Assembly (NCBI GenBank): GCA_021650915.1
Contig: CP091279.1
Coordinates: 600,001-632,000 of the forward strand
Source of the DNA: Candidatus Brocadia sp.
Lineage (GTDB): Bacteria; Planctomycetota; Brocadiia; Brocadiales; Brocadiaceae
Reading direction: 5' to 3'
Length of the DNA stretch: 32,000 bases
Every line of letters starts with the position of its first letter. Within the stretch, counting starts at the first letter, position 1. The position numbers and the translations under genes were made by a program. Positions 6,913-26,604 of this stretch are shown piece by piece. Under the pieces are notes generated by a model, which saw nothing but the letters and a program-made list of their open reading frames with translations, had not been told where the DNA came from and searched no databases.

Positions 6913-7252
6913 TTAAAGAAGTCTCTGGATCATATGAAATGAAGATGTGTGAGATGAAGTGGAATAACACTAAATATTTCTTCAATATCATGAACAGCAG
7001 TGTCACCCTTTGTCTTTAGCATGATTATGTGTATAGCTGTGAAAACGAGCATACAATGGTTGTTTTCATTCCGTGCACTAAAATGTCTGACTGAAAGTCC
7101 TCTGTGTTACGTTTAATACAGTGGTAAAACAAGCAAATGTATTACCTACTGAGGTTGATACAAACATTGTGTTCAACCCAGGCTCTAACTCACCAAACTC
7201 ATTCTCAATGGGTACGGTCGATGCGATAATGTCAGAAAAAATATTTTTCCCT

Positions 7253-8596
7253 TCAGCGCTTCCGTCCTTTTTTATAAGATACAAGCCTCTCTTTAATCAC
7301 CTTATCGAATCCGTGATCAGTCGGCTTGTAATACTCTTTCCCTTGCAATTCCTCAGGCAGATACACCTGTTCTACATATCCTCCAAAGCTATGCGGATAT
7401 TTGTATCCCATCCCGTATCCAAGGTCTTTCATGAGCGATGTTGGGGCATTACGAATATGAAGCGGCACAGGCAGCGCACCTTTCTCCCTGACATCCTTCA
7501 ATGCCTCCAGATAAGACAGATATGAGGCGTTGCTTTTGGGTGCACAGGCGAGGTAGGTAACGCCCTGAGCGAGAGGTATCCATCCTTCCGGCATCCCCAC
7601 AAAGTCAAATGCATCCTTTACGGCAATTGCCAGTTGAAGCGCCTGCGGATCAGCGTTTCCAATATCCTCTGAAGCGAATATGACCATGCGTCGCGCAACA
7701 AAGAGCGGTTCCTCGCCCGCCTCCAGCATCCGTGCCAGCCAGTAAAGGGCGGCATCAGGATCACTTCCGCGCATCGATTTGATAAATGCGGAAATCACGT
7801 TATAATGTTCCTCCCCTCCTTTATCATAGAGGAGCGCCTTCCGTTGCATTGCCTCCTGGGCCGTCGCCAGGGTCACATTCCGGTTCCTTTCCTCATCAGG
7901 TTTCTCAAGCATAACAGCCGCTTCCAGGGAATTTAAGGCCACCCGCGCATCTCCTTGTGCAAGTCGTGCAATGAAATCAAAGGCGTCATCGTCTACTGCC
8001 ACGTTCAAATTGCCAAGCCCTCGTTCCTTATCCCTGAGGGCATTTTTCATAATAACTTTGATGTGGTCATTGGTGAGTTGTTCCAGCACCAGCACCTTGC
8101 AGCGGGAGAGAAGCGGTGCATTTACTTCAAAGGAAGGGTTTTCGGTAGTAGCGCCAATGAGAGTTATCGTGCCGTCTTCCACGTGATGAAGAAACGCATC
8201 CTGCTGGGCCTTGTTAAACCGATGAATCTCGTCTACAAAGAGGATAGTTTTTTTATTATAAAACCTTAACTGCTCCTTGGCCTCTTCAATGACAACCCTG
8301 ATATCCTTTACTCCGGACAACACCGCTGAAAACGAGACAAAATGCGCATCCATTGCCTGAGCAACGATAAAGGCCAGGGTAGTTTTGCCAACTCCGGGAG
8401 GCCCCCAAAATATCAGAGACACCAGTTCCTTATTTTCCACAAGCCGGTGAAGGATCTTGCCGGCTCCCACCAGATGCTCCTGACCAATAAATTCTTGTAA
8501 ATCCCGAGGCCGCATACGATCGGCAAGAGGAGCCTTTTTTATCGTGCCTGGCTTTATATTAAATAAATTTTTTTGCAGCTTCTTTGTTGTCGTCAA
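7253..8596 (-). CDS. rarA: Replication-associated recombination protein A (AAA+ ATPase, MgsA/RarA)
   Basis: LADRMRPRDLQEFIGQEHL, Walker A GPPGVGKTTLA, Walker B LFVDEIHRFNKAQQDAFL, and the MgsA C-terminal block DPDAALYWLARMLEAGEEP. The track start is TTG. Confidence 0.92.
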   Translation of the reverse strand: MTTTKKLQKNLFNIKPGTIKKAPLADRMRPRDLQEFIGQEHLVGAGKILHRLVENKELVSLIFWGPPGVGKTTLAFIVAQAMDAHFVSFSAVLSGVKDIRVVIEEAKEQLRFYNKKTILFVDEIHRFNKAQQDAFLHHVEDGTITLIGATTENPSFEVNAPLLSRCKVLVLEQLTNDHIKVIMKNALRDKERGLGNLNVAVDDDAFDFIARLAQGDARVALNSLEAAVMLEKPDEERNRNVTLATAQEAMQRKALLYDKGGEEHYNVISAFIKSMRGSDPDAALYWLARMLEAGEEPLFVARRMVIFASEDIGNADPQALQLAIAVKDAFDFVGMPEGWIPLAQGVTYLACAPKSNASYLSYLEALKDVREKGALPVPLHIRNAPTSLMKDLGYGMGYKYPHSFGGYVEQVYLPEELQGKEYYKPTDHGFDKVIKERLVSYKKGRKR

Positions 8597-8835
8597 TTTT
8601 ATCTCACTTCCGTTTTTCTCCGGTCATAAACGCTGGCATGTGTGCCGCTTTTCCCGAGATTTCTGTTCCTGTCTTACACATCCCCGAGCGTCTCGTTCGA
8701 CTGAGTTCACGAAGAAGTCTCAAGGGGAGAAGAAAGAAGTCTTCACCGGGGAGAGGATTCAGGGGTGGGTTCAGTCCTACGATAATAAGCATCCGAAGGT
8801 CAAATTTCATAAATCCCTCAATTCGCATCCGTAGC

Positions 8836-9483
8836 CTATTTTTTCGGTACCTTTTCCCAATCAGCCAGAAACCGTTTAACACCGTCATCCGTGAGCGGGT
8901 GTTGAACAAGTAAATCAAACACATTAAAAGGAATGGTAGCAACATCGGCTCCCATTAATGCCGCATCCCGGACATGAACGGGATTGCGAATGCTGGCAAC
9001 AATGATCTCCGTTTGATAGCCGTAGTTATCGTAAATCGTACGGATTTCCTGTATCAGATCCATACCAAACTGGCCCCGGTCGTCCAGACGCCCGACGAAT
9101 GGACTCACAAACGTGCCACCGGCCTTTGCTGCCAAAAGCGCCTGATTCGAGGAGAAACAGAGCGTTACATTGGTTTTAATACCCTCATCGGCTAATCGCC
9201 TTACTGCCTTCAAGCCATTTTTTATGAGAGGGATTTTTACCACGATATTGTCTGCGATCCTTACCAGATCTTTCGCCTCCTTAATCATGCCTTCCGTATC
9301 AAGACTCACCACCTCGGCGCTGACAGGGCCCTTCACAAAGGAACAAATCTCCTCAACCGTCTCGCGAAAAGGCCGCCCCGTCTTGGCTATTAATGAAGGA
9401 TTCGTTGTGACTCCATCCAGGATCCCCAAGCTATGCGCCTCACGAATTTCTTTTACATCCGCCGTATCAATAAAAAACTTCAT
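8836..9483 (-). CDS. tal: Transaldolase / fructose-6-phosphate aldolase family (short type 3B)
   Basis: 215 aa with [24 protein letters not shown] and the Schiff-base lysine context [10 protein letters not shown]. Confidence 0.92.
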
Positions 9484-9551
9484 TCTCTTTCCTTTCTCTA
9501 ATCATTTTTCAAAGACTAACAAAATATGAGTTGACAAGTCTCCTTTTCTCT

Positions 9552-10544
9552 TTATGCGCAAAGTCTGTATACCAGCAATTCCAGTAATAATTGTGTATTC
9601 ATAGAACTTGTCTTGGTTTTCACATCGGTTTCTAATAAAAGTTCATGGTTTTTTGCAAGATCTTCTACGCTGTACCGTTTCACCTGTTCAAAAAATCGCT
9701 TTGCAAAGAATGGTATGATCTGTAACTCGGAGGCGACCTTTTGCTCGTTCTCGCCTTGTTGTAACAGTTGTTTTGCCCGCCACAATCTTTTAATCTGCCA
9801 TGCCAGCAAACTGATGATCCTCGCCGAATCTTCGCCGTGTGATAACATCTGAATTAAAACTTTCAGAGCCAGCGTTACGTTTCTTTGTGCAACGGCCTCG
9901 GTTAGTTCAAATACCGTGCGATCTCTATCCACGCCCACGAGGGCATCCACATCTCTTTCATCAATGGTGGTTTTCTCACCCAGATAAATCGATAATTTTT
10001 CAAGATGTTTGTCCAAAATCGCCAGATTACCACCGACACTATCAACGAGTTTTTGGGTAGCAGGGGCATTAATCTCTTTTTTGTACTGCCGTGCATGAGC
10101 CTGCACCCAGTTCGGCAGAGAGTGTTCCTTTAACTTTTTACACTCAAGAGAAATACCCACTTTGTCTACAAGGGTTGCCAACTTTGTCCGTTTATCCCAC
10201 TTCTTGCAGATGAGTACCAGATGGGAACGGCTTGCGGGCGTCTGTAAATACTTTTCAAGTATACTCCGGTTTTTATCAATAAATTCGTCTGCTTCTTCAA
10301 CAAGAACCAGCTTGTTTACCCCCGGAAAGAATGGCACCGTCCTTAATTCATCAAACACCACACCGCCGGAAATTTCATCCCCGTTGAATTCAATCAAAGC
10401 TATACTGGGGTCGTTGTCCTTGAGTAGATTCGTCTTTGTCGCCGAAAGCGCCTCGTGAATAAAAAACGCCTCATCTCCAAAAAATACAAAGATGGGAAAG
10501 GTTTTGCCTTTGTTCATCAAGGTCTTTAACTGATAAATATCCAT
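9552..10544 (-). CDS. holA: DNA polymerase III subunit delta
   Basis: 330 aa with the N-terminal pattern PIFVFFGDEAFFIHEA and a helical C-terminal domain typical of HolA. The ATG shares one nt with the cobU stop (TAATG at 10542-10546). Confidence 0.8.
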   Translation of the reverse strand: MDIYQLKTLMNKGKTFPIFVFFGDEAFFIHEALSATKTNLLKDNDPSIALIEFNGDEISGGVVFDELRTVPFFPGVNKLVLVEEADEFIDKNRSILEKYLQTPASRSHLVLICKKWDKRTKLATLVDKVGISLECKKLKEHSLPNWVQAHARQYKKEINAPATQKLVDSVGGNLAILDKHLEKLSIYLGEKTTIDERDVDALVGVDRDRTVFELTEAVAQRNVTLALKVLIQMLSHGEDSARIISLLAWQIKRLWRAKQLLQQGENEQKVASELQIIPFFAKRFFEQVKRYSVEDLAKNHELLLETDVKTKTSSMNTQLLLELLVYRLCA

Positions 10545-11206
10545 TATTTTATCCTCTGGGCAATTCCAGCCACCATAAAATAGACCTCATCCGCTTCACC
10601 GGCAATGATTTGGTTTGCATACCCTGCAATATCCCGGAATTCACGTGATAAGGCATTGTCAGGCACAATACTCAATCCAACCTCATTCGATATCAGAATT
10701 ACATCCGACCCAGACTCACGGCACGCTCGCCTCAGTTTGTGAATCTCTGCAAGGATCACCTGTTGTCTTTCCTGTGGACTTCCTGTCTGAAGCCCGGAAC
10801 AACCAGCCGAGTTTGTCATTTGATTTGATTCTCCTCCCCTGCCGGGAGAGGGTAAATCATACCCTTTTGCAGGAGGTTGAGCGAACGGCTGTCCGCCCCT
10901 ACCACCTGGAACTGTTTCACTGTTTAAAAGCATATTCGTAATATAGAGGGTAATACAATCAATCAAGACAAGGCCTGTCGTACCGCTAATATCCGATACA
11001 ACTTTGTTAACGTGAAAAGGAGACTCAATTGTCATCCAGTTCTGCGGACGCCGTGCACGGTGGATACGAATCCGTTCATGCATCTCGTCGTCTTTAGCCT
11101 CTGCGGTAGCAATATAGACTACATCATTATACTTTTTGGTAAGTCCTTCTGCAAAGGCAGACTTGCCGCTCCGTGCGCCTCCAAGGATAAAGGTTATTTT
11201 GGCCAT
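10544..11206 (-). CDS. cobU: Adenosylcobinamide kinase / adenosylcobinamide-phosphate guanylyltransferase, with an internal low-complexity insertion
   Basis: P-loop ILGGARSGKSAFAE, YIATAEAKDDEMHERIRIHRARRP, LISNEVGLSIVPDNALSREFRDIAG. At 220 aa it exceeds the ~180 aa I recall for canonical CobU. Confidence 0.9.
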   Translation of the reverse strand: MAKITFILGGARSGKSAFAEGLTKKYNDVVYIATAEAKDDEMHERIRIHRARRPQNWMTIESPFHVNKVVSDISGTTGLVLIDCITLYITNMLLNSETVPGGRGGQPFAQPPAKGYDLPSPGRGGESNQMTNSAGCSGLQTGSPQERQQVILAEIHKLRRACRESGSDVILISNEVGLSIVPDNALSREFRDIAGYANQIIAGEADEVYFMVAGIAQRIK

Positions 11207-11290
11207 ATTTCACCTAATTTTACCTATATTTTAATGCCTTTCAATACAATTTAAAACACTATAATAAACGAATTAATATTTTCTACGGGT

Positions 11291-14095
11291 TTATCTGTAA
11301 ATGTGCATAATGCCAACGCATGTCGTTCTGACATTTAAAATTCCTTCACACTCCGATCGGAGCTGTGCCTCGAAGTTGCGGATGAGTAATGAAATTTGTT
11401 CATCCGTTTCTTTTAGGTTTGAGACAGCATGATTTTCTTTCCATTCCTGCTGCATGAGAAGTTCAACATCGCTTTTCATCTGGCTACCCGATAAAATGAA
11501 TTCTTTATATAATTCTTTTTTTATTCCATCTTCAAAGTTGACCATAAAAAGATATCTGACTGAAAAAAAGTCTGGTATTCCATCATTTTTTAATTTGAGG
11601 ACATCTCCAGAAATGGCATCGCTCCTATAATGACTTATTAATGCATCTACTAAAGGATGGCCAACTCCCATAAGATCCATCCCCTTTTTCCTGGTGGCTA
11701 TTTGCCTTGAGAAGGTTACGTTTTCATAGTGTGACGATATGCCGGCGTATTTTTTGAGCGCAGACGGGACTACAATGTTTACAATTTCTCCCGAAGGGAC
11801 GAAACTTCCCCCGAGACGTATAATAGCTTTTTCACAAAATATTTTCAGGTCTTCGAGGGTATATCTTCCTTTAAGCTCAATATAGCTTTCAAGATTAAAG
11901 GTTTTTAAATCCTGTGCTAATTGTCGCAAGGCGTTGCTCGACTCTTTGGCTTGTCTCAGCGCTTCGGCTATTTCTTCTTCTGTCCTTTTGTAATTCTTAT
12001 TGATCAGGGCTTCTTTATACAAATCATTATAGTTTAAAGAGGAGCCGAGAAAGCCCAGAATTTCTGATCTAAAATCCTCCGTTACTTCCCCCGTGACGTT
12101 ATCAATCCTCCCTATCGTTTTTGCTATTTCAAAGAGTTTTTGTTCGAGAATGGAATAAACATCCTCTTCTATCGTTCCTTCGGCAATAAGATTATATACC
12201 TGCGCGGTATCCGTCTGCCCATACCGGTGTATCCTTCCTATCCTCTGTTCAACTGCCATAGGATTCCATGGCAGGTCATAGTTGAAGAGAATCCTGCATA
12301 TCTGTAAGTTTATGCCTTCTCCGCCGGCAGAGGTGCTTATGAGAAATTGAGCCCCGTTTTCGTTCCAGAATGATTCGCACGACGCTATCTTATCCTCAAG
12401 AGGGCCGCCCTTAATTATGGCAATTTTATCATTTGAATAATACTTGCTCAGTTCTTCCTTCAAAAAATAAAGAGTCTCAAGATACTGCGTAAAGATAACA
12501 ATTTTTTCCTTTTCATTCTCCCTTCTGATTTGCTCAATTGCCCTCACCAGCGTGTCAAACTTTCTGTCAGGACCATCGTCCACAAGGCCTATCAACTCTT
12601 TCACCTTTTGGTCTTCATTAGGGATGTTTGCGGGCGCATCAATGATGTCATCGCTGATTTCCTGTGCATCAAGCGCCCAATGGGTTATCTCCTCATCAAA
12701 TTTCGGCCGTTTTTTAAGTTGTTGCTTCAATCGGGCAATATATGCATCCGCATCCGTGTAATCAATAGCCCCCCTCTCATAGGATAAAAGTTCAAAGACG
12801 ATCTTACGCATTTCCTCCTGATATTTTACTATCTGTTTAGAAATATCCTCTCTGGCAGTAAGATTATGCAAGCCACCCTCCATCGCCATTTGTCTCCTCG
12901 CATAAATGGCTAATAATCTTCGCCTTAATGCCTGCTTGATAGCCCTGGGGCTTGACGACATAATTTTCTGAAAGATTGCCATGACAAAACCCACAGCCCT
13001 CTGCTGTTTTGTCGTCTTGTCACTTCCCACACCGGCGGCATTATATCCTTCTTTCAGATATTCTGTTAGCTTCTCATAAAAACGTTGCTCTCTGATCGAA
13101 AGGCTGAATTTTTGAGAATGCACCTTACGTCTCATAAATATCGGATTTCCTTCAACGTCGGTCACTTCCCGTTTTGTCCTCCTTATCATAACCCGTCCAA
13201 GGAGTCCTCTGTGGTCTAGCATTGCTTCGGGGTTTTCAAATAACTGGTCATCAAGCAGTTGTATTAAAGACCAGAATTGATAACCATCCCCCTGATGTGG
13301 AGTAGCTGAGAGAAAGAGCATATCACGGGTTATTCCTTTCAGCTTTTCTGCCAAACGGTAATTTTGTGTGACTTCGATTTTTTCCCCATATTTTTTTCTG
13401 GTGAGATGGTGCGCCTCATCAAAGACGATAATATCCCATTCCGGGCCTTTCATGAGCTTTTCAAGCCGCGCTGGTTTCTTGATCGTGTCAATTGAGGCTA
13501 TCACAAGATTATGCCTTTCCCATGCATGGGGGTTTGCATCTGAGAAATCCAGTCCAAATATGTCAAAATAGATTCTAAAGCAATCCTTCAGCTCGTTACG
13601 CCAATTTACGGTAAGCCCCGCCGGACAGACGATAAGCGCCCTGTCCGCATCCCTTCTCGAAAGGAGTTCTCTTATGATCATACCGGTTTCAATCGTCTTC
13701 CCAAGTCCAACTTCATCCGCAATGAGGAGCCTTCTCCGCCTTGTCTCAACGACCTGGTGGGTCAGCAATATTTGATGCGGAAGCAGGTCTGCCTTGCTGT
13801 TTGACAATTCACCGCCAGAGTTTTCCACGGGGAATTGATACGCAAGTTGTTTTAAGAAAAAATCCACAGGCTTATCAGAAATACCCTTTTCAAATTTCTG
13901 AAAAATATCATCAATTGGCTCAACCATTTCCGGGGGAAATGTCTCAAGAATCCTTTTCCCGTCTTGCTCAAAGGCGACGTCAACCGTGTATTCACCGCCA
14001 CCCTCGCACACCCGGATTACTTCGCCCGCTCCTAATTCGGGACGATATTTCACTTTTACCCTGGTATTCTCTTTTATGATCATACTATTTGTCAT
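11291..14095 (-). CDS. SNF2-family helicase (COG0553-like; BrxHII-like or RapA-like)
   Basis: 934 aa. Motif I LIADEVGLGKTIETG, motif II VFDEAHHL, SATPHQG, and the helicase C block NYDLPWNPMAVEQRIGRIHRYGQ. The ATG overlaps the upstream gene stop (ATGA at 14092-14095). Confidence 0.9.
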   Translation of the reverse strand: MTNSMIIKENTRVKVKYRPELGAGEVIRVCEGGGEYTVDVAFEQDGKRILETFPPEMVEPIDDIFQKFEKGISDKPVDFFLKQLAYQFPVENSGGELSNSKADLLPHQILLTHQVVETRRRRLLIADEVGLGKTIETGMIIRELLSRRDADRALIVCPAGLTVNWRNELKDCFRIYFDIFGLDFSDANPHAWERHNLVIASIDTIKKPARLEKLMKGPEWDIIVFDEAHHLTRKKYGEKIEVTQNYRLAEKLKGITRDMLFLSATPHQGDGYQFWSLIQLLDDQLFENPEAMLDHRGLLGRVMIRRTKREVTDVEGNPIFMRRKVHSQKFSLSIREQRFYEKLTEYLKEGYNAAGVGSDKTTKQQRAVGFVMAIFQKIMSSSPRAIKQALRRRLLAIYARRQMAMEGGLHNLTAREDISKQIVKYQEEMRKIVFELLSYERGAIDYTDADAYIARLKQQLKKRPKFDEEITHWALDAQEISDDIIDAPANIPNEDQKVKELIGLVDDGPDRKFDTLVRAIEQIRRENEKEKIVIFTQYLETLYFLKEELSKYYSNDKIAIIKGGPLEDKIASCESFWNENGAQFLISTSAGGEGINLQICRILFNYDLPWNPMAVEQRIGRIHRYGQTDTAQVYNLIAEGTIEEDVYSILEQKLFEIAKTIGRIDNVTGEVTEDFRSEILGFLGSSLNYNDLYKEALINKNYKRTEEEIAEALRQAKESSNALRQLAQDLKTFNLESYIELKGRYTLEDLKIFCEKAIIRLGGSFVPSGEIVNIVVPSALKKYAGISSHYENVTFSRQIATRKKGMDLMGVGHPLVDALISHYRSDAISGDVLKLKNDGIPDFFSVRYLFMVNFEDGIKKELYKEFILSGSQMKSDVELLMQQEWKENHAVSNLKETDEQISLLIRNFEAQLRSECEGILNVRTTCVGIMHIYR

Positions 14096-14520
14096 GAGGA
14101 TAGGTTGTACCCCGTTTTGTATATGGTTATTCCACGTACATTATAAGCTGTAGTAGAACCAAAGATAAGTTCTATGGGAAGGTTTTCCCCGCGGTATTCA
14201 ACCCAGAGGGAGTCCCCTCTGATAATCCGACCTTTGCACACGATCTGAACCTGTATCAGTTTTCGCACGAAGAGAGACGCCGATGACTGTAAAATCCTGT
14301 GAATTTCTCGTGCAAGAGATTGCCTCTCCTGAGATGCCGTCATGTAAAGCGCTTCTTCGACACCGACAATAAAAAATGACGAACGAGGAGATATGCCATC
14401 AGGGCAATTCCTTATTTCTCTCAGAAAATCTAAAATACCTATCTTTATTTCATTCGGTTCGACACCATCCTCTTTGTAAGGTTTTACGTATCTATACTCT
14501 ACTATTTCGTAACCTGGCAT
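14092..14520 (-). CDS. Hypothetical protein, translationally coupled to the SNF2 helicase
   Basis: The ORF track gives TTG at 14544. ATG at 14520 is preceded by AAGGTG 7 nt upstream, giving 142 aa. I recognise no motif. There is a 4-nt overlap with the helicase start. Confidence 0.6.
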   Translation of the reverse strand: MPGYEIVEYRYVKPYKEDGVEPNEIKIGILDFLREIRNCPDGISPRSSFFIVGVEEALYMTASQERQSLAREIHRILQSSASLFVRKLIQVQIVCKGRIIRGDSLWVEYRGENLPIELIFGSTTAYNVRGITIYKTGYNLSS

Positions 14521-14600
14521 ATATTTGCACCTTACAGATTTCAAATAGACAACATCTTGGTTTTTTGAAAAATTCTTGTATTAACGTAGGTAACATGCAC

Positions 14601-14630
14601 CGTAGAGACAATTCATGAATTGCCTCTACG
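14601..14630. repeat. Short palindromic repeat element (cgtagagacaatt-catg-aattgcctctacg)
   Basis: 13-bp arms with one mismatch around a central catg. Confidence 0.5.
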
Positions 14631-14841
14631 CCCTGTTACAAGGCACTTTCAACTATTGATGTTTTCAAAAAAACCTTAATCCGGCGATAATTTTAAATCT
14701 TGACTTAAGAATTAACACAAAAGATTCGCATCTACCGGGCAAACGAGCTATAAACGCAAATTGACATATTTCACTTTTTACGTGAAAACTACTATTTCAA
14801 AAATACTAGATACTGTCAACTGAATGGCTCATAATAGTATC

Positions 14842-14925
14842 TGTCATTGCGAGGGTGTTTTTTCCCGAAGCAAGCCTTTTTGAGGTGTCCTGGAGATTGC
14901 TTCGGAAAAAACCCTCGCAATGACA
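14842..14925. repeat. REP/MITE-like inverted pair of a ~30-nt module (tgtcattgcgaggg...ccgaagcaa)
   Basis: 14842-14875 and the reverse complement of 14895-14925 match at about 29 of 31 positions with two single-nt indels. They can fold into a long hairpin. Confidence 0.7.
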
Positions 14926-14994
14926 CGTTTTACCTTTTTGGACATACCATAGCGCAGCACAGCCGCAACCAAATTTCCTTTATGAAAGTGGGGA

Positions 14995-15086
14995 GATTGC
15001 TTCGGAAAAGGCCCTCGCAATGACAGTGACCATGCACTTTGATGGCACACACTGCACGTTGTCATTGCGAGTGAAGCGAAGCAATC
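14995..15086. repeat. Second inverted pair of the same ~30-nt module
   Basis: gattgcttcggaaaaggccctcgcaatgaca (14995-15025) pairs with tgtcattgcgagtgaagcgaagcaatc (15060-15086). Both are copies of the module at 14842-14925. Confidence 0.65.
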
Positions 15087-15261
15087 TTTCACTCATAAAA
15101 AACGGTACCTCCTGAAAGGGGCTTATGAAAAAACTTACAAAAAAAAGAAGTTTTTATACAGTAATACTATATCATCCCTTCGGGATTTTTTCACATTTCC
15201 AAAAAAGAGTTTAACCACGAAACACGAAGGTCACGAAGAAAAACTCATCCTAATACTATAA

Positions 15262-18200
15262 TTACACCTCAATCAGGCTTACTATTTTCTGTATGGGTAT
15301 CTGAAACGTAGGATTCCTCTTTTTTAAATATTCCAGGGCAACACGCATCTGTGGGATTGCCTGTTTGAATTCATTCAACCATAACATCAGATTCTCTGAG
15401 GCATTGGCAAGCCCCATAAGATAATGAATGATATCCACCAGCGCTACATTATCAAATCTTTCCTCTTCCATATCGGGAAATAGTTTTAGCTGACGAGGAT
15501 TCCTTGCGTCTTTTTTAAAAAGCGCCTGGAGGTCTTTATACCGTTCGTCAGGCTGTTTTACCTCGTAAGTCCTCCCCCGTTTTGCCCTGCCTTTGCGCAT
15601 AACACCGGCCTTTATCAATCCGTCAATTTCAAGAATACCGCGGGTTGCCTTATGCACCTCGTCGCTCTGTATCTCTTTTCTATCACAAAGACAGGTGAGA
15701 TACACATAGCTTACCGTGTCTATATGCTCAAGTTCTGAGGATAAAGGATGCGCGGTATCGATGAGTTGCTCCACCATCATCCGTATAGAGGCGAGTGCCT
15801 TTTGAAGAGGCACGACATCTCCATTGTGGTCAACTATGGCGCCATAGTGCTTGCTGTATAACTCAAGGCATTTGCCGATGAGGATAATGTTTATATCTGC
15901 GGGTAAGAGCTTTTCGCTTCCATATCTTCCCGACTCTATCATGGCAATCTCTTCCCTTGCCTTTGCACGTATCTCTTGCCTGACGCCTGCCCATGAACGT
16001 TTCTTTGTGTTGCCATTACCATTTCGCTTTTTACAGACATGGATGAGATCGTAGGAGATTGCCTGTTTATCCATGAGATGCAAGGAGCTTTCAGACTCAC
16101 CATGTATGGGGTAGACCGCCTCTATCAAGAAACCCGCATTGCAGACAGATTCAAGGAGCGATTCCCATGCACTCCCTTCTGCATGATGAAAGGTAAAAAC
16201 CACAAGTCCTTGATCTTCGAGGTATTCATGACATTTCTTCCACACATTAGTAAGTCCTTCTTCATAATCTTTTGCAGTTTTACCACGTGTGGGATTTTCA
16301 ACAATTTCCTCCACCTTTGGTGTTAATTCGGGTGAAAAGTGAGGATATGTTTTTGAGAGCAATAGTCTAAGCCAGACATAAAAGAAATCAGCAAGTTCAG
16401 AATAGTTGACATTATCAGCGTATGGCGGATCAGTAATTACAATGTTAAACTTCCCTTCTATTGTGTTACGTGAATTTCCGCAAAATATTTTTGAATCATT
16501 GTTTGCCTCTATAATTTCATTTCTATTCTCACTTATAATTTTGTTCTCGGAATATTTACGGTCGTAAGGTTTATAACAAAATACTTTTCCTTCAATAGCT
16601 TTATTTATGCACTTCAAAAAATTACATTTTCCATAGCTAACGCCCCAAACATTACCCTCTGCAAAAGTAGCTTTCGGTTGAAAGTCATGCCGTGCAAAAA
16701 CTCCTTCAGTTTTATCTGCATCAGATCTATGTCTTGTAAATACGTTGTTACTTTCCAGTGTTGTAAAAAACCCGCTTATCAACATCTCTTTCATTACCTG
16801 ATCCTCTTCCTCACCAATCGCCTTCAGCAATGTGCTCAGGCAGAGGAGTTGTCTCGGATTAAACATCTGATGCCAGTATCTATAATGATGTTCAATAAGC
16901 CTGTGCGTTTCTTGCCCATCGGGAATTGCACTCTTTGGATAAGGAAGCTTTTCTTTTTCCTTTTCCCACCGCTTTTCTACATCCTGATAGCGCTTCAGGT
17001 CTGAGGGATTTATTCTTTTAAAGAACTTCCCGTTGTTTTTGTTTATCATACATGAATGGGTCAGTCTTTTGCTCTTTGTGACCTCATGAAAGAGGTTCTT
17101 TTCAAGCGTTTCACCCGCACACTCAGGACAATAACCCTCTATGGCATACGGCCTGGTTGGCAGCAGTTGCTCCTGTGGCAACTTTCGTATGGAATTGATA
17201 ATCTTGTCCTTTGTGCCGCATGATTCGCAAACAAAAGAGCCCTTTTCGGCAACATTTCCCCTGTTCGGGCTGTAATCTTTTTTACAGGCAGGGCACGAGA
17301 CATCTTCAGGCAAAGCGCCACGATACTGCCAGACGGCATAGCAATGAGGACAGAGTAGGACGGCAAGGGGAACTTTTTTCTTTGTCTTTTTCAGCGATTT
17401 GGCTTCTGCCTCCACATTTTCATGGGAACACCAGGGGCATGCAGCCCTGTGTGTCATGCTATTCCACAACGCCCATCGCTTATGGGACCGCAATTCTCCC
17501 GCTGCATCCTTCGGATTACACACGGTAAGCGCCTTTTCTGCTATCAGGGAAGCAGATTCTATATCCATATCAAACACCTTTTTACAATGCTTGCATTCAT
17601 AATCGGGCACGTACCTGATGGTTGGTGTTTTTTGAGCAATAATATAATTGTTAAAAAGAGTCACTTCCCGTTTACAATTGGGGTTTGTGCAGATGGCGGA
17701 TTTTACCCAAAAGGTGTAGATAATGTCGGCGTCTTCCTTAGCGCTTCTATTATTGGAAGACAACCCCCCTGATCCTCCTTTGTCAAGGGAGACATCGCTG
17801 CTTGCCCCACAGCAGGGACACCCGGTTTTATAGTGGCTGAGGAGTTCTTCTTTTACCGATTTTCCCGTATGGGTCTTGCGCGCCTCAAGTCTTTTGAATG
17901 CATCTCTGAGCCTGTCGATATCAACCGGTTCTACCTCAGTCTTTACGATAAACCAGGCAACGGGATTTAAATCGATACCCGTCACATGACAGCCGAGGCG
18001 CAACGCCTCGACAACGGTTGTGCCACCCCCCATAAATGGATCAAGTATCTTTACGCCGTTTGTATCGGGGTCATTGGTATGATCATTGTAAAACTCCTCC
18101 ATGATGTTTGTGCCGGCAGGCTTCATGGAGGCCAGGAGTATCGCCCTGAATACGCAGGATGCCCTGCGGGCAAACCATTTATGCATTTGATAGATGGGTT

Positions 18201-18276
18201 TGAAGGCATTGCGTTCCGGTACAGCCAGTCTGTTGATTTCGACGATGGGAAATGATTCTTCGATTGCCTTTTTCAT
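15262..18276 (-). CDS. DUF1156-type DNA methyltransferase with multiple Zn-ribbons (PglXI-like, inferred N6-adenine/N4-cytosine class)
   Basis: 1004 aa. The N-terminus PIYQMHKWFARRASCVFRAILLA resembles the DUF1156 signature. SAM motif ILDPFMGGGTT at aa 78-87 and catalytic ITDPPYA at aa 614-620 (nt ~16420-16431). Eight CxxC-type pairs lie between aa ~150 and 390. Confidence 0.85.
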   Translation of the reverse strand: MKKAIEESFPIVEINRLAVPERNAFKPIYQMHKWFARRASCVFRAILLASMKPAGTNIMEEFYNDHTNDPDTNGVKILDPFMGGGTTVVEALRLGCHVTGIDLNPVAWFIVKTEVEPVDIDRLRDAFKRLEARKTHTGKSVKEELLSHYKTGCPCCGASSDVSLDKGGSGGLSSNNRSAKEDADIIYTFWVKSAICTNPNCKREVTLFNNYIIAQKTPTIRYVPDYECKHCKKVFDMDIESASLIAEKALTVCNPKDAAGELRSHKRWALWNSMTHRAACPWCSHENVEAEAKSLKKTKKKVPLAVLLCPHCYAVWQYRGALPEDVSCPACKKDYSPNRGNVAEKGSFVCESCGTKDKIINSIRKLPQEQLLPTRPYAIEGYCPECAGETLEKNLFHEVTKSKRLTHSCMINKNNGKFFKRINPSDLKRYQDVEKRWEKEKEKLPYPKSAIPDGQETHRLIEHHYRYWHQMFNPRQLLCLSTLLKAIGEEEDQVMKEMLISGFFTTLESNNVFTRHRSDADKTEGVFARHDFQPKATFAEGNVWGVSYGKCNFLKCINKAIEGKVFCYKPYDRKYSENKIISENRNEIIEANNDSKIFCGNSRNTIEGKFNIVITDPPYADNVNYSELADFFYVWLRLLLSKTYPHFSPELTPKVEEIVENPTRGKTAKDYEEGLTNVWKKCHEYLEDQGLVVFTFHHAEGSAWESLLESVCNAGFLIEAVYPIHGESESSLHLMDKQAISYDLIHVCKKRNGNGNTKKRSWAGVRQEIRAKAREEIAMIESGRYGSEKLLPADINIILIGKCLELYSKHYGAIVDHNGDVVPLQKALASIRMMVEQLIDTAHPLSSELEHIDTVSYVYLTCLCDRKEIQSDEVHKATRGILEIDGLIKAGVMRKGRAKRGRTYEVKQPDERYKDLQALFKKDARNPRQLKLFPDMEEERFDNVALVDIIHYLMGLANASENLMLWLNEFKQAIPQMRVALEYLKKRNPTFQIPIQKIVSLIEV

Positions 18277-18279
18277 TTT

Positions 18280-18615
18280 CTAGTCGATTGCAAGATGAAT
18301 CTTTATGGCGTTTTCCACTTGTTCAAGGATATCGTTGCCAAGTGTGCCAATATACCTTTTGAGGCGGCTTTTATCTACAGCCCTCATTTGAGGTATCTTT
18401 AATTTAGAGTCATAATCAAGCCTGCTGTCATTTTTCTTTACAAATACCTCAAACGGGAACACCCTTTCAACCTTTGATGAAAAAGGGATTGCCATAACAG
18501 TTTTCAGATGCTTATTAGCTTCATTGCATGATATGATCAAAGCAGGTCTTTGCTTTTTTATCTCAGCGCCAACAGATGGTTCAAAATCTACAAGATATAT
18601 ATCACCACGCTTCAT
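18280..18615 (-). CDS. mazF: Type II toxin, MazF/PemK family endoribonuclease
   Basis: 111 aa beginning MKRGDIYLVDFEPSVGAEIKKQRPALIIS, typical of PemK/MazF. The start overlaps the antitoxin stop by 4 nt, and the stop lies 3 nt before the methyltransferase ATG. Confidence 0.9.
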   Translation of the reverse strand: MKRGDIYLVDFEPSVGAEIKKQRPALIISCNEANKHLKTVMAIPFSSKVERVFPFEVFVKKNDSRLDYDSKLKIPQMRAVDKSRLKRYIGTLGNDILEQVENAIKIHLAID

Positions 18616-18842
18616 TCTTCGAGTCCATCACTGAGAGTGTCTTCCCATTCCTTGTATACTTCATAGTCTTCATTCACTGCCGCTTTATATGCTGCCTCCA
18701 ATTTATTTCTGAGTCTTTTCTTTTCGTCATGCAGTTTCTTTTCCTTAATCGCTTCGGCTATATAGGCAGATTTATTCTTAACTGTTGATAATATCTGCGC
18801 AACATCTTCAGGTAATAATATATTGATTCTTGTATTACTCAT
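18612..18842 (-). CDS. Antitoxin (RHH/MazE-like) partner of MazF
   Basis: Position upstream of mazF. ATG at 18842 has SD GGAGGTG and lies 1 nt after the PglZ stop (TGAtATG). MSNTRINILLPEDVAQIL fits a ribbon-helix-helix beta strand, and the tail is acidic. Confidence 0.7.
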   Translation of the reverse strand: MSNTRINILLPEDVAQILSTVKNKSAYIAEAIKEKKLHDEKKRLRNKLEAAYKAAVNEDYEVYKEWEDTLSDGLEE

Positions 18843-18843
18843 A

Positions 18844-19818
18844 TCACACCTCCAGTACAATCCATGGTGTCAGCATCTCCATCAATGACAGACCTCCATG
18901 CTTATATAATTTCACTGCTGCCTCTCCGGTAGACCTTGTTTTTACGCGCCCCTTGACCATTGCCACCAGCCTTTTGGCATCTATTAAAATATCATCTGAT
19001 GATGGGGTATTGGGGTTTTCCTTAAGATAAGCATATCTGTTATTTCCGAAATATTCATTCAGTTTTTGCGTCTCCTGGCTGCTCCTCACGAAATCCATTC
19101 CCGTACCAAAGAATAGATAACCATGATCGCTGGTAATAATGATCCTGTCTTTCCCTTTTATTTGCTGTACGGTGTTCATCCACGCCGTTTCAAATTGAAC
19201 ATGGATATGCTCAAAGTGATGATCGAATCGCGCTCCGCTATCTGTGTATGTATTGTCAGGAAATGCAGACCAGACAAGCAATGCATTGTTTTCATGGATA
19301 TTGCCTATGCTTTGCGTTGGGCTTCCTGAGTACAGCGCCGTAATTCCCCTGTCAGTGAGTTCCCTTCTGCCGGCAAGTTGTGAAGGCCCAACGCCAGCGC
19401 ATTGCAATTCACGCTCTATAAAGTTCATCGTCTCGCTGGGTATAGCGGCATGAGAACAGCCTATTTCCACAATTTTAAAACCAGATTTTTCAGCAAGTTT
19501 TATCATAATAGGAATCTCACGCAGGGAAAGGCCATCAAAGACAGCGACAGCGGTTTGGCTGTCGGAAAGAACGTTGAATAACTGTTTACTTATATCTGGC
19601 GGTGATAACAATTCTTCATAAATTCTGTCCGCTGAAGCCGCTATCAGGGTCTCAAATCTGTTGATAGACGCTTCGCCTTTTTTGAGATATTCTGTGGGAC
19701 TAACTGCGTGATAATGCGAGGGGCTCCAAATCTCTTCTATAAGCCATTTCTTAATCCAGGGTAGTCTCGGCCCGGCATTGGTTAGTTTTTCCAGTAATGA
19801 GAGATTAAAATATTCCAA
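18844..19818 (-). CDS. pglZ: PglZ-domain (alkaline-phosphatase-like) protein, unusually short
   Basis: 324 aa with four PglZ-like blocks: AVAVFDGLSLREIP, HAAIPSETMNF, IIITSDHGYLF and YKHGGLSLMEMLTPWIVL. The TTG start directly abuts the upstream TGA. Confidence 0.7.
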   Translation of the reverse strand: MEYFNLSLLEKLTNAGPRLPWIKKWLIEEIWSPSHYHAVSPTEYLKKGEASINRFETLIAASADRIYEELLSPPDISKQLFNVLSDSQTAVAVFDGLSLREIPIMIKLAEKSGFKIVEIGCSHAAIPSETMNFIERELQCAGVGPSQLAGRRELTDRGITALYSGSPTQSIGNIHENNALLVWSAFPDNTYTDSGARFDHHFEHIHVQFETAWMNTVQQIKGKDRIIITSDHGYLFFGTGMDFVRSSQETQKLNEYFGNNRYAYLKENPNTPSSDDILIDAKRLVAMVKGRVKTRSTGEAAVKLYKHGGLSLMEMLTPWIVLEV

Positions 19819-22476
19819 TCAGCCACCCTTTTTATTTACTTCAAGCGCTATATCCAGAGAATAATCTGCGCCAGGAATCGATGGAAGGGACTCGATCTGC
19901 TGCTCTATCTGGGATTTTGAGAATCGGCCGGTTTTTGTAATGGCTATTTCTGCCGTAACGTCTCCCTGCCCGCTGAGATTCCCTCTGATCGATCCGGGAA
20001 GTGTGCTTAAATCTCCTATGTTAGTTTTCTGATAGAATAGCTTATAAATAACCGTTATTATCTCTGCAGCCTGATATTGCTGCAACCTGAAAGCAGTCTC
20101 CTCCCTGAGACTCCCGATGCTTGTCCTGGGAGGTATTTTTAAGGAAACGATTTCTTTTTTGGGACATGTACACGTTTCCTGGCCACATCTTTGACAACGA
20201 ATAGGCTGAGGAATGGGTTCTTCGCATGCACAGGTCTTTTGCCCGCAACGTGGACAAATTTGTGGCGGAGCAGTTGGGGATGGAGGCTGTTGTTCTGAAA
20301 AGGGAGAAACAATCTTTGCGTTGAAAAGCTCTGTTTCGGAAAGATCGGGATTCCTCCTGCAATAATTACCTCTACTGTGTTGTATCCCGATAGTTCCTTC
20401 CCTGCAAAGTTCCCGAATTGCCGCTGAAACCGCACGAACATGAGCTGGAACAGGGAAGCCTAGTGTTGCCCTGTATTCTGCATCGATATCCTTAACGAGT
20501 TTCTCTTTTATATGGTCAAGCCGTGATTCGAGATGTTCCTTTATCGTCAGTAAAGGGAAATAATCCTGATTAAGGGATTCAAGCGCCTTATCTTTCGTAA
20601 ATTCTTTTGGCAAAGGCTCCAGTTCGATTTGGTCATCTCGTGCATTTTCACCATATTTTATCCAATGAACAAAGACCAATCCCGCTCTTTTAATCCGTTC
20701 AATAATGAATGATTGATCTGCCCTTGCTATCCTTTCGAAATCAGACTTTTTAGAAGCGCTTCGTGTCCCTTCTGCAAGCTTCTTCGCAGCGATTACCCTC
20801 GTTGCCCACTTTAACGTGTCTCTGTCGGATAGTAATTGAAATTCAGCATCCTTTGGTTCGAGTACCAGGATAAGGTTTCTTACGTCCATACCATAATAAA
20901 TGTTGTGCCTTTCCTCCTGAGTCAAACGCCTTCCGGCAATTACATATCGCAGGCGGTTTTTATCAAAGCCATTGAGGAGTTGTTTTGTTTGATCAGGGGA
21001 GTCAAATACAACCGTACCCGATGTCTCCCGAAAAATTTCGGATTTAACAAGATCGATAATAAAATCCTTGGCGGCATATTTGTAATCAAGAGACCGATAT
21101 TCAACCCTTGCTTCAGGTTGTTCTTCGATATCAAAGGAGAATCTGTCTCCATCAGTATGAAAATAAGAGGCATATTTCTGGAAATTCATTATCGCCTGGT
21201 CAAAAGCATTAATATCTGTCATTGGAGAAAGGATATCTGTTAAAAGCGTATTGCGGGAAGATCCTTTTTCCGATTCAAATCCGGTAAGTGAATAAAGGAG
21301 AACGGCAGAAGCGAATCGGTTCGCTATCGGGACTTTTGGCCTGAGTTCTTCCATATTTTCGATTGCCCTGTTTATAAGGTCTCCTCCGACATCCAAATCT
21401 CTCAGCATGATAATATTCGCTTTGTCTTCTAAAGAGGCGTCGGCCGGCGTGATGATGTCGTTTGTGCTATGAGTGAGCCTAACAAGATTTCCGAGAAATG
21501 AAAGGGCGCCTCTCACATTCTGAAAACCCCCTCTTGCCGGTATCTTTTTTAAAATAATATCTATCAAAGATGGAGAAAACGGATATGTCTCATGAAATCT
21601 GCTTTTTAACTCATTCGCATCTAAAGAGACATGTCTTTGCCATATGTTTACAAAACTATCGATAACAGGCGAAGGAGATTTATTGTTGAATTCGAGGTAA
21701 TTTTCAAACAAACGGTGTAATATTACCTTGCACTGGTCTTTTGTATTATCAAATTTAACCATAAAGGGTTTAACCCGTTTTAACGTACTCCCCGGTTCTT
21801 CCCTATCACCGTAAAGGCTCGCAAAGAGTGTAATCTGCTTCGATCTATTACTGAATTCGGAAATCATCTGCAAAAAAGCGATATTTTGCGCCTGAATAGC
21901 AGGGTCGGCGATGACTTTTATACCCTGTTCAAGTTCATCAAGAATAAGAATAAGTTTATGATCACCAATAGCTTCCTTAAATTCAGGAAGGCTAAGATGG
22001 GTTATTTTGTCCGGAGCTTTTTTACCAAACTTCTTGTATATCAAGTCCCAGACATATTTATAGGGGATGTCGGTAAACTTGTTTATAATAACGACTATGT
22101 CATCAGGGATAACGCAGTTGAGATTATTACGCTTAAGCCAGTTTTGCGCAATGGCGGTGTGACTAAAAAGATTGTAAATGAAGAGGAGGAGGTGTGATTT
22201 ACCACTCCCTTTTAAACCCTCGAAAAGGAACAGTCCCGATGAGTTTTTCTTTGTAGAGAACCTTACGTTTATTTGTTCGATAACTTTCAGAATGTCTGAT
22301 GTTGGATATGTGAGGCTGAAAAATAATTCCGGATCAGCTTCAATTTTCTTCGCATCTTGGGAATTTAAATTAGCCAGATCAATAATCCCTTCAATGCCCT
22401 CTTCAGAGATAGTTTCGAATCTTGGTCTTAGATACGACGAATAACCCATACTATTCTCTATTTTAAAATTTACCAA
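19819..22476 (-). CDS. brxC: DUF499 / BrxC(PglY)-like AAA ATPase with C-terminal duplicated Cys motif
   Basis: Walker A EGLKGSGKSHLLLFIYNLF (DUF499-like GKSH) and Walker B LILILDELEQ. Cys motifs CPRCGQKTCAC and CQRCGQETCTC. The track start is TTG 22476, overlapping cobS by 14 nt. The first ATG, at 22449, lies 13 nt after the cobS stop. Confidence 0.8.
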   Translation of the reverse strand: MVNFKIENSMGYSSYLRPRFETISEEGIEGIIDLANLNSQDAKKIEADPELFFSLTYPTSDILKVIEQINVRFSTKKNSSGLFLFEGLKGSGKSHLLLFIYNLFSHTAIAQNWLKRNNLNCVIPDDIVVIINKFTDIPYKYVWDLIYKKFGKKAPDKITHLSLPEFKEAIGDHKLILILDELEQGIKVIADPAIQAQNIAFLQMISEFSNRSKQITLFASLYGDREEPGSTLKRVKPFMVKFDNTKDQCKVILHRLFENYLEFNNKSPSPVIDSFVNIWQRHVSLDANELKSRFHETYPFSPSLIDIILKKIPARGGFQNVRGALSFLGNLVRLTHSTNDIITPADASLEDKANIIMLRDLDVGGDLINRAIENMEELRPKVPIANRFASAVLLYSLTGFESEKGSSRNTLLTDILSPMTDINAFDQAIMNFQKYASYFHTDGDRFSFDIEEQPEARVEYRSLDYKYAAKDFIIDLVKSEIFRETSGTVVFDSPDQTKQLLNGFDKNRLRYVIAGRRLTQEERHNIYYGMDVRNLILVLEPKDAEFQLLSDRDTLKWATRVIAAKKLAEGTRSASKKSDFERIARADQSFIIERIKRAGLVFVHWIKYGENARDDQIELEPLPKEFTKDKALESLNQDYFPLLTIKEHLESRLDHIKEKLVKDIDAEYRATLGFPVPAHVRAVSAAIRELCREGTIGIQHSRGNYCRRNPDLSETELFNAKIVSPFSEQQPPSPTAPPQICPRCGQKTCACEEPIPQPIRCQRCGQETCTCPKKEIVSLKIPPRTSIGSLREETAFRLQQYQAAEIITVIYKLFYQKTNIGDLSTLPGSIRGNLSGQGDVTAEIAITKTGRFSKSQIEQQIESLPSIPGADYSLDIALEVNKKGG

Positions 22477-23278
22477 GTAACAAAAGACTTAATAAAAACA
22501 CCAGTTCAGCAATCTCATTGGTAGCGCCCAGGGTATCTCCCGTCATCCCACCAATTTTCTTTTTAATATACCAAATCCAACCGAGAGTGAAAATAAGCAT
22601 TATTGCAAATATAAAAAATCCACCCAACCCAAAAAAATACCAGAATAAGACAACAGGAAAAACTGACAAAAAGATCACCTGTATTCGTGTAGTATCTTTC
22701 GTAATAAAACTCCCCGTACCCGATTCATTCCGGGCATATGTCGATATCCCTGCGGCGCAGACCTGCGCCCATCTTCCTGCAACAGGCATGATCAACAAGG
22801 CAACACATTTATTAACTAGGACCGGGGTGGTAACGCAGGATTCACATGGTATGCTGATACGAAAAGGGGAACTATGAATCGTGGAGATTTCCCCAATGCT
22901 CAGCAAACAGGCATATTTGAGTCCGATCATACCTATCAGCCCGATAGCCCCAAAGCTGCCGATGCGGCTATCCTTCATGATTTCCAGGCGTTTTTCCTTA
23001 TTCCAGCCACCCCAAATACCGTCACAAGTATCTGCAAGACCGTCGAGATGCATTGCACCGGTAATCATAATAAATATCAGCACAATCAAAGCGTCTGCAA
23101 TAAGGGAAGGGAAAAAGCAATACAACGGCAGATACGCAAGACAGAGAAAAACGCCTATACACAAACCCACCACGGGAAACCAATACACCACATGGCAACA
23201 ATCCCTTGGTTTTATCCGATCCTCCCTGTCAAAGGGGATAATAGTTAAAAACTTGAGTGCCCATAAAAAGGTATTCAT
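22463..23278 (-). CDS. cobS: Adenosylcobinamide-GDP ribazoletransferase (cobalamin synthase)
   Basis: 271 aa polytopic membrane protein with LKFLTIIPF and HLDGLADTCDG motifs. Confidence 0.9.
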   Translation of the reverse strand: MNTFLWALKFLTIIPFDREDRIKPRDCCHVVYWFPVVGLCIGVFLCLAYLPLYCFFPSLIADALIVLIFIMITGAMHLDGLADTCDGIWGGWNKEKRLEIMKDSRIGSFGAIGLIGMIGLKYACLLSIGEISTIHSSPFRISIPCESCVTTPVLVNKCVALLIMPVAGRWAQVCAAGISTYARNESGTGSFITKDTTRIQVIFLSVFPVVLFWYFFGLGGFFIFAIMLIFTLGWIWYIKKKIGGMTGDTLGATNEIAELVFLLSLLLLGKF

Positions 23279-26506: not shown

Positions 26507-26604
26507 AAGAATCGTCTAAATTACGCAATTAAAAGGCCGATAATAAACCTGTTTTTGCCGATAGGTGAATAAGATAAAATTGTCTTAAATAACGCAGGCC
26601 TGGA

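Follow-up and report, generated by a model that had tools for sequence, protein, structure and literature searches.

Does a seven-gene island in an anammox bacterium, built around an unusually short PglZ protein, represent a new type of bacteriophage exclusion (BREX) system, or is it a member of a family that has already been described? The question arose from an earlier note on a 32,000-nt stretch of DNA from Candidatus Brocadia sp. (GCA_021650915.1, contig CP091279.1, positions 600,001-632,000; hereafter the window), in which a BREX-like island at window positions 11291-22476 was read as an undescribed subtype or a hybrid. The open reading frame (ORF) listing of the window gives the same coordinates as the note for seven co-directional minus-strand genes and a 0.74-kb spacer, and the encoded proteins were assigned to families by profile searches (Pfam, NCBIfam and PADLOC-DB v2 of 2023). 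We conclude that the locus is very probably an intact anti-phage cassette of Type-3 BR, a DUF499-centred BREX-related (BR) system, situated between cobS and cobU.

The assignment is carried by a core of five genes. In related PglZ contexts (Nitrospira, a Nitrospirae metagenome-assembled genome, Desulfobacterium sp. N47 and sister Brocadia) the order is ATPase, PglZ, DUF1156 methyltransferase, DUF8076 and SNF2 helicase. A scan of genome collections combined with tblastn recovered 64 non-redundant loci in this canonical order (36 with all five genes) from Planctomycetota, Nitrospirota, Desulfobacterota, Bacteroidota, Ignavibacteriota, Verrucomicrobiota and other phyla; individual loci of this survey are referred to below by L numbers. 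A comparative genomics study by Rakesh & Krishnan (Nucleic Acids Res 2026;54(3):gkag035; PMC12839542; preprint 10.1101/2025.10.09.681413) distinguishes Type-1 BR, which is Hma; Type-2 BR, which is Gao_RL and includes DUF3780 and a phospholipase D (PLD)-helicase; and Type-3 BR. The last was found in 569 taxa and comprises a DUF499 ATPase, a DUF1156 methyltransferase with a zinc-finger target recognition domain (TRD), a BrxHII-like helicase from which the nuclease has been lost and a stand-alone active PglZ, with a small iSTAND protein in 82% of these taxa (PMC12839542). The window cassette has the same five components. The phyletic range is similarly broad (Desulfobacterium, Nitrospirota, Ignavibacteriota and others), and several of these groups are represented in the paper's supplementary alignments. 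Because the same five-gene set has been published as Type-3 BR, with the DUF8076 family in its iSTAND alignment, the locus is, judged by its gene content, a further example of a computationally defined, published subtype and not an undescribed one. The novelty proposed in the earlier note is thereby lost: it had named assignment of the whole locus to a defined subtype as the outcome that would count against it, and in spirit this is the outcome obtained. The gene order, which it had called divergent, is invariant across the family (64 loci); what is not conserved is the full seven-gene combination with MazEF.

The first gene (19819-22476, minus strand, as for all genes of the island) encodes a STAND/ORC-like AAA+ ATPase of 885 aa when read from a TTG codon; relatives' proteins are called at 876 aa, which fits a refined start at the ATG at 22449. 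Homologues of 874-889 aa head every related locus. The Walker A (GLKGSGKS, residue 87) and Walker B (LILDE, residue 177) motifs are intact. Profile matches were weak and partial (NCBIfam DUF499_antiphage, 3.9e-13; PADLOC HmaC, 1.5e-10; PADLOC DUF499, 2.5e-8), Pfam DUF499 gave no match, and the BrxC profile reached an E-value of 0.006. Thus the position and the Walker motifs are those of the DUF499-type ATPase of Type-3 BR, and by sequence the protein is a distant DUF499 relative and the predicted scaffold or loader of the system. Residues 741-771 (window ~20164-20256) hold two tandem CPxCGxxxCxC Cys4 knuckles within a linker. One to three copies are found in ATPases at least 52% identical, and in remoter relatives the linker is rich in Pro and Glu and lacks cysteines. 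These knuckles differ from the published description of Type-3 BR, the main text of which does not mention them.

The methyltransferase (15262-18276, 1004 aa) is a DUF1156-type N6-adenine enzyme, scoring above the Pfam cutoffs for both DUF1156 (31.2 bits, cutoff 24) and N6_N4_Mtase (44.6 bits, cutoff 26.7). It matches PADLOC HmaB (9e-47), DUF1156_antiphage (1.1e-43) and PglXI (2.7e-29), with HmaB ahead of PglXI, and a PDB sequence search returned nothing usable. Between motif I (FMGGG, residue 81) and motif IV (DPPY, residue 616) lies a large TRD insert with seven CxxC motifs (residues 153-386), consistent with the zinc-finger-bearing TRD of Type-3 BR; the paper describes one or two 4C fingers. 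Two segments (window 16442-16780 and 17737-17795) cannot be aligned to the methyltransferase gene of the Brocadia locus L008, which is otherwise 83-88% identical. Both are probably either of low complexity or variable and specificity-determining, and the longer segment (16442-16780) would fit a part of the enzyme that sets specificity and differs among relatives.

The SNF2 helicase (11291-14095, 934 aa) matches PADLOC DrmD (1.6e-106), HmaA (2.5e-101) and BrxHI|BrxHII (4e-101), and its best solved relative is RapA (7e-39). The only Pfam domains detected were SNF2-rel_dom, Helicase_C, ResIII and DEAD, with a DEAH motif at residue 226. Pfam found no nuclease domain, and a match to phospholipD_antiphage covers only the helicase C-lobe (residues 489-667). 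The protein is thus a BrxHII/RapA-like helicase of the kind found in Type-3 BR, with no fused nuclease.

The profile matches of the stand-alone PglZ (18844-19818, 324 aa) were weak (~1e-6) and covered only the C-terminal ~100 positions of PglZ profiles 741-855 positions in length; the Pfam scan did not match the window protein to PglZ (precomputed Pfam matches exist for homologous proteins), and a PDB sequence search with the PglZ profile returned nothing usable. An AlphaFold (AF2) model (mean predicted local distance difference test score, pLDDT, 82) gave the PglZ of PorX as top Foldseek match (E 1e-8, probability 1.0), followed by a BREX PglZ (9zn5_B, 4e-6) and then by NPP/autotaxin enzymes. 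At least 500 homologues of 321-332 aa, ~60% identical, were found, and the protein of Candidatus Brocadia sapporoensis, the nearest species-level genome, is 90% identical. Across 33 homologues the residues D95, G96 and S98 (DGLS), P127 and E129 (PSET), S230-D231-H232-G233 (SDHG) and H307-G308-G309 (HGG) are invariant, and T130 is conserved in at least 90%. The alkaline-phosphatase-like fold and the metal-binding and catalytic residues expected of the stand-alone PglZ of Type-3 BR are therefore in place, and the short, PglZ-only protein proposed in the earlier note is borne out. The profile searches which that note had suggested gave a divided answer, since DUF1156 and SNF2/Helicase_C are well supported while Pfam DUF499 and PglZ gave no match and the other DUF499 and PglZ profiles matched weakly. 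In type-I BREX, PglZ acts as a metal-dependent nuclease and joins BrxB in a sub-complex (PMC12205998), and BrxC dimers contact PglZ-BrxB through the inactive AAA+ domain of BrxB, according to a passage in the MANTIS preprint (bioRxiv 10.64898/2026.09.23.753747). By analogy, the window PglZ is a candidate metal-dependent phosphodiesterase or nuclease effector.

The fifth core protein had been regarded as unknown and extra, and proves to be a core gene of Type-3 BR. Its ORF spans 14092-14544 (150 aa from TTG); relatives' gene calls favour the ATG at 14520 (14092-14520, 142 aa). A record for this exact 142-aa protein, 100% identical in Candidatus Brocadia sp., assigns it to PF26277 (DUF8076); our own Pfam scan of the window proteins gave no DUF8076 match. 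The iSTAND alignment of PMC12839542 includes a sequence ending '...YIFGTPNKRRECP PVYSTGFNLSS', the C-terminal motif of the DUF8076 family, together with CBX30016.1 from an uncultured Desulfobacterium sp.; two of the surveyed loci (L003 and L023) are from Desulfobacterium sp. N47. The shared motif indicates that the 142-aa protein belongs to the same family as the published iSTAND. It has no Walker A motif, and a PDB sequence search with its profile returned nothing usable. Its model is confident (pLDDT 94), and the weak Foldseek matches are nearly all to P-loop NTPases (adenylate kinase, RFC, p97/NVL and RAD51 paralogues). Family identity (DUF8076, GFNLSS motif) thus fits the iSTAND of Type-3 BR, with weak matches for a P-loop fold, and we propose, again by analogy, an inactive P-loop regulator or adaptor comparable to BrxB/BrxF. 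The absence of BrxA, BrxB and BrxF stated in the earlier note consequently holds at the level of profile matches, of which there were none, and does not hold for the family, as DUF8076 is the paper's BrxB/BrxF-like iSTAND.

Type-3 BREX, as reportedly laid out by Goldfarb et al. in 2015, comprises BrxF, BrxC, PglXI, BrxHII, PglZ and BrxA. The window shares with it an ORC-like ATPase, a PglXI-like methyltransferase, a BrxHII helicase and PglZ, in keeping with the earlier view of a BREX-like or DUF499-DUF1156-helicase island nearest to type 3. It differs in its bare 324-aa PglZ, its gene order and the DUF1156 domain on its methyltransferase, and profile searches found neither BrxA (DUF1819) nor BrxF in any island ORF. 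Canonical Type-3 BREX has both of these, a BrxC-type DUF6079 ATPase and a long multidomain PglZ, none of which was detected here. Hma/Type-1 BR (PADLOC; PMC11232893) has a similar triad of helicase, methyltransferase and ATPase, and HmaA, HmaB and HmaC are the best PADLOC matches of the island; in Hma, however, the helicase ends in a PD-(D/E)XK nuclease, and PglZ and iSTAND are both lacking. In MANTIS, the same system as Gao_RL and Type-2 BR (Shaw et al., bioRxiv 10.64898/2026.09.23.753747), the DUF499 AAA+ ATPase (MtsA) is homologous to that of the window and the methyltransferase (MtsC) is likewise of DUF1156 type; a small co-regulator gene and a helicase-family motor share one operon. Its MtsD is a helicase-PLD nuclease and its MtsB belongs to another family (DUF3780 in PMC12839542), whereas the window has a nuclease-less helicase, DUF8076 and a stand-alone PglZ, and overall similarity is low.

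Membership of one of these three named systems in place of Type-3 BR is exceedingly improbable. The BrxHI|BrxHII, PglXI, DUF499_antiphage and DUF1156_antiphage matches, like those to the Hma proteins, speak for such membership, but scores are far under the NCBIfam equivalog cutoffs (48 against 1200 bits and 150 against 1000 bits), the helicase has neither a PD-(D/E)XK nor a PLD nuclease, no DUF3780-like gene was found in the island, BrxA and BrxF are likewise missing, and the PglZ matches long profiles only at their C-terminal end. We therefore rejected canonical type-3 BREX, Hma and MANTIS, whose defining features are absent. The earlier statement that none of the six canonical BREX types fits is upheld.

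The cassette also appears to be intact. Ratios of non-synonymous to synonymous substitution (dN/dS) against L005, L075 and L076 are 0.09-0.23 for all seven genes, including MazE, MazF and both genes beyond the spacer, and all ORFs are full length relative to their homologues. By this measure, all seven genes are under purifying selection, and on the same two grounds a decayed remnant was rejected.

The spacer between the methyltransferase and DUF8076 (14521-15261, non-coding, ~0.74 kb) sets the window apart from the published Type-3 BR description, yet it does not define a subtype. It is a variable insertion, absent or different in close relatives. In L005 and L008 the methyltransferase stop codon abuts the DUF8076 start, the median gap in relatives is 9 nt, and L075 has a different spacer of ~540 nt at the same junction with its genes intact. 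The window spacer contains 34-nt direct repeats (14892-14925 and 14992-15025), inverted copies of GTCATTGCGAGGG and a 30-nt palindrome (14601-14630), and it folds much better than shuffled sequences (z = -8.4). Rfam searches gave no credible RNA family, whether over the whole window at the gathering threshold or over the spacer at E-values up to 1. A 113-nt piece recurs in the ATPase-PglZ junction of B. sapporoensis (L009, 3302-3414), and repeat units GTCATTGCGAGGG...CCGAAGCAATCTCC and the palindrome occur at different cassette junctions among Brocadia genomes as well as at window 31576-31588. Contigs from short-read metagenomes (L071-L074) end at window 14921, within the repeats. The spacer is best read as an insertion of nested repeats resembling miniature inverted-repeat transposable elements (MITEs). 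An 82-aa ORF within it (14844-15092) is probably spurious and was rejected as a gene, as it translates the repeat copies and has no family match. A promoter-like site on the minus strand at 14819-14791 (TTGACA-17-AATAGT with an upstream TG, a consensus match only) may drive DUF8076 and the helicase.

This insertion could also be taken as a sign that the cassette is decaying or inactivated, with the repeats uncoupling DUF8076 and the helicase so that restriction is lost. In favour of this are the 0.74-kb, strongly structured insertion and the fact that the genes on either side of it abut in most relatives (median gap as above). We consider it improbable given the full-length ORFs, the dN/dS values of DUF8076 and the helicase (0.10-0.17 in comparisons with L005 and L075), the intact genes around the spacer of L075 and the promoter-like site within that of the window.

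Several points weigh against an intact Type-3 BR system. The literature searched holds no defence, methylation or PglZ nuclease experiment on any such system. The ATPase matches the DUF499 and HmaC profiles only distantly and partially, far under curated cutoffs (~1200 bits), and found no match in a PDB sequence search. For DUF8076, a Foldseek comparison of the model with the PDB gave nothing significant (best E 0.23), the BrxB of 9zn5 was not among the top 50 matches listed, and PADLOC BrxB and BrxF profiles did not match 40 members of the family at E-values up to 10. Mean column identity in the family is 68%, whereas iSTANDs are called rapidly evolving in PMC12839542. Finally, the spacer could have a polar effect on DUF8076 and the helicase; the promoter call is a consensus match only.

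Between PglZ and the methyltransferase lies the pair of small genes that the earlier note took as setting the subtype apart. MazF (18280-18615, 111 aa) is a clear PemK toxin (PemK_toxin, 9e-30, 103.5 bits). MazE can be read from a TTG (18612-18860, 82 aa) or from the ATG at 18842 (18612-18842, 76 aa), the latter being the gene as called in L075 and L076; it matches NF050104 weakly (2.6e-5) and is probably a ribbon-helix-helix (RHH) antitoxin. The two genes overlap by 4 nt, and the pair is conserved in L075, L076 and L078, so that a PemK/MazF-fold toxin with an upstream, coupled antitoxin is found, as in type II toxin-antitoxin (TA) modules of the MazEF kind. It departs from these in being embedded in a defence operon and in the weakly matching, RHH-like antitoxin.

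Comparison with close relatives shows that the content of this position turns over. In L005, L008 and L009 (~89% identical by blastn) homology to the window ends at 18837, just past the PglZ stop codon, and resumes at 18267-18279, around the methyltransferase start at 18276. Between these points the window has 557 nt encoding MazEF in place of the 732-nt MNT-HEPN pair of its relatives (L005, 3767-4498). The genome UTAMX2 (L076), 97.4% identical across the flank, ATPase and PglZ, has the order PglZ-MNT-MazE-MazF-methyltransferase; here MNT is kept and HEPN is replaced by MazEF (L076, 9388-10336). Three states of the slot are thus seen among Brocadia loci that are 88-97% identical: MNT-HEPN, MNT with MazEF, and MazEF alone, the last in the window (18280-18842) and in one other genome (L075). 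In UTAMX2, MNT and MazE are each preceded by a 16-nt near-repeat, GAGGTGTRATRTGAGT, comprising the Shine-Dalgarno sequence and start codon. The window state could thus plausibly have arisen when a deletion at this microhomology removed MNT, and the series suggests that slot cassettes are gained and lost by microhomology. Among the loci compared, MazE is present only in L075-L077, in the same slot, and in L078, where the MazEF family stands alone among housekeeping genes. L075 (ERZ25039527 contig_79876, 6146-17156) holds a MazEF-bearing cassette 88-91% identical to the window at another chromosomal site, flanked by mutS on its upstream side and by Fic on its downstream side. Only window 22470-11304 is homologous, indicating that the cassette moves as a unit; no integrase was found among the annotated neighbouring genes of L075.

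The PglZ-methyltransferase junction is also where insertions concentrate in the wider family. Counting inserts longer than 350 nt per junction in non-redundant loci, we found them in 38/59 loci at this junction (~64%; the slot is empty in the other 21), against 1/60 between ATPase and PglZ, 5/39 between the methyltransferase and DUF8076 and 7/37 between DUF8076 and the helicase; as two of the 38 were found via MazF, the count is slightly biased. By our tally, ~30 of the 38 carry a PIN, HEPN, MazF or Schlafen module, with cargo ORFs taken from the plus strand only. The commonest cargo is RHH with PIN (16 loci), followed by MNT and/or HEPN (~6), Schlafen/AlbA_2-HATPase_c_4 (6), other PIN modules (3) and MazEF (the window and two further non-redundant loci, L075 and UTAMX2 L076/L077); Fic and DUF3800 also occur. 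The RHH (~89 aa) and long PIN (~167 aa) genes are found in 16 distant genomes from Ignavibacteriota, Bacteroidota, Verrucomicrobiota and others (L044, L046, L047, L049-L052, L054, L055, L057, L059-L063 and L066). Their PIN diverges together with PglZ (Spearman 0.66 over 16 loci, pairs that are not phylogenetically independent), as though RHH and PIN had become lasting sixth and seventh components of the cassette in that clade. At the DUF8076-helicase junction, two Desulfobacteraceae loci carry 5-kb insertions (L017, 8677-13294; L019, 14751-19343), and that of L019 includes a 1039-aa ORF which by eye is a putative large methyltransferase-type protein, possibly type IIG.

HEPN, PIN and Schlafen proteins have been proposed as 'backup effectors' in BREX and BR loci, with auxiliary nucleases lacking from Type-3 BR or kept in limited instances (PMC12839542). 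The ~64% of loci with cargo in our survey suggests, contrary to that account, that RNase modules are common in Type-3 BR, and MazF adds to the list. Since homology breaks at the PglZ stop and methyltransferase start, relatives differ in what they carry, MazEF occurs alone in L078 and inserts are frequent only at this junction, MazEF is by the comparative evidence exchangeable cargo and not part of the core. The case for an undescribed BREX subtype or hybrid, defined by all seven genes with their short PglZ, embedded TA pair and extra gene, becomes very unlikely on these grounds. It could point to the lack of a model or system for the whole set in PADLOC-DB v2, Pfam and NCBIfam, to the weak ATPase and PglZ matches, and to MazF going unmentioned in the main text and the consulted parts of the supplement of the BR paper, where those parts list neither Brocadia nor MazF. 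Yet the five-gene core has already been published, the TA pair varies or is missing among close relatives, and the spacer is itself an insertion.

What MazEF does within this exchangeable position is a separate matter. It is most likely an addiction or hitchhiking type II TA module, and it could act as a second-line abortive-infection RNase when the operon is shut off or inhibited. The stronger form of the latter idea, in which MazEF, like the other RNase modules of the slot, is an integrated abortive-infection effector released when a phage blocks expression or inhibits the core, is possible though doubtful. In its favour are the frequency of RNase cargo, the co-divergence of RHH-PIN with PglZ, the tight translational coupling of the window genes (1-nt and 3-nt gaps to PglZ and the methyltransferase), the purifying selection on MazE and MazF, and the published 'backup effectors' proposal. 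Against this, cargo turns over among loci of 88-97% identity, the slot is often empty, the MazEF family also lives alone among housekeeping genes, TA modules often lodge in defence islands for addiction, and the Spearman coefficient carries no phylogenetic correction. Rather unlikely, in our estimate, is the further proposal of a dedicated 'toxin slot', in which endoribonuclease TA modules are swapped by short-homology recombination at the ribosome-binding site and start codon and serve as an abortive-infection layer coupled to the system. If it were true, Type-3 BR would be two-tiered, combining restriction with abortive infection, far more often than the published account allows.

How the Type-3 BR core might work can be sketched from MANTIS and type-I BREX, from which the whole mechanism is inferred. 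Among BR-type systems, only MANTIS has had its mechanism worked out: the ATPase and co-regulator load the methyltransferase, MtsC hemimethylates asymmetric 6-bp sites, and MtsD restricts unmodified DNA (bioRxiv 10.64898/2026.09.23.753747). By extension, the window ATPase, probably aided by DUF8076, would load and activate the methyltransferase at short asymmetric sites, so that host DNA is marked with N6-methyladenine. The same ATPase-methyltransferase complex would recognise unmethylated sites on incoming DNA and recruit the SNF2 translocase. As the helicase lacks a nuclease, the role of the metal-dependent nuclease or phosphodiesterase that blocks phage DNA would fall to the stand-alone PglZ, and DUF8076 would bridge or regulate PglZ or the helicase.

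Recognising the locus as a clean, intact example of the recently defined Type-3 BR, and no new BREX type, removes a false lead. The family offers a minimal setting, with a bare 324-aa PglZ and a nuclease-less helicase, for the long-standing question of whether PglZ is the restriction effector in BREX, and for how a small, inactive P-loop-like partner controls it. With the core already known, what is new here is minor, namely MazEF in the cargo slot with its resolved turnover series, and some unreported details. The Brocadia loci show toxin-module turnover in a defence operon at nucleotide resolution, which bears on why TA and RNase modules lodge in BREX-like loci. Practical impact is limited, because this anammox host is uncultured or available only in enrichments and function is deduced throughout.

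Upstream of the island lies cobS (22463-23278, minus strand; CobS, 1.4e-57), which holds the same position in B. sapporoensis (L009) and UTAMX2 (L076), and downstream lies cobU (10544-11206, minus strand; CobU, 1.6e-55). Cross-genome homology ends at the cassette ends. No tRNA that could serve as an integration site was found across the window, and no integrase among the Pfam-annotated genes flanking related loci. Within the island, ATPase and PglZ are directly adjacent (0 nt) and DUF8076 and the helicase overlap by 4 nt. The cobS segment (window 22462-23055 against L009 1-594) has 78% nucleotide identity to B. sapporoensis, compared with 89-91% for the island, a difference hinting that Brocadia species have exchanged the island through recombination. 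Elsewhere in the window, a 680-aa protein on the plus strand (4870-6912) combines an ammonium-transporter (Amt) domain with HisKA and HATPase_c domains, as annotated on L071, a histidine-kinase sensor of note for an anammox bacterium. The G+C content falls to 0.34-0.35 at 26001-28000, as compared with ~0.43-0.47 in the rest of the window, and this segment may be another acquired one.

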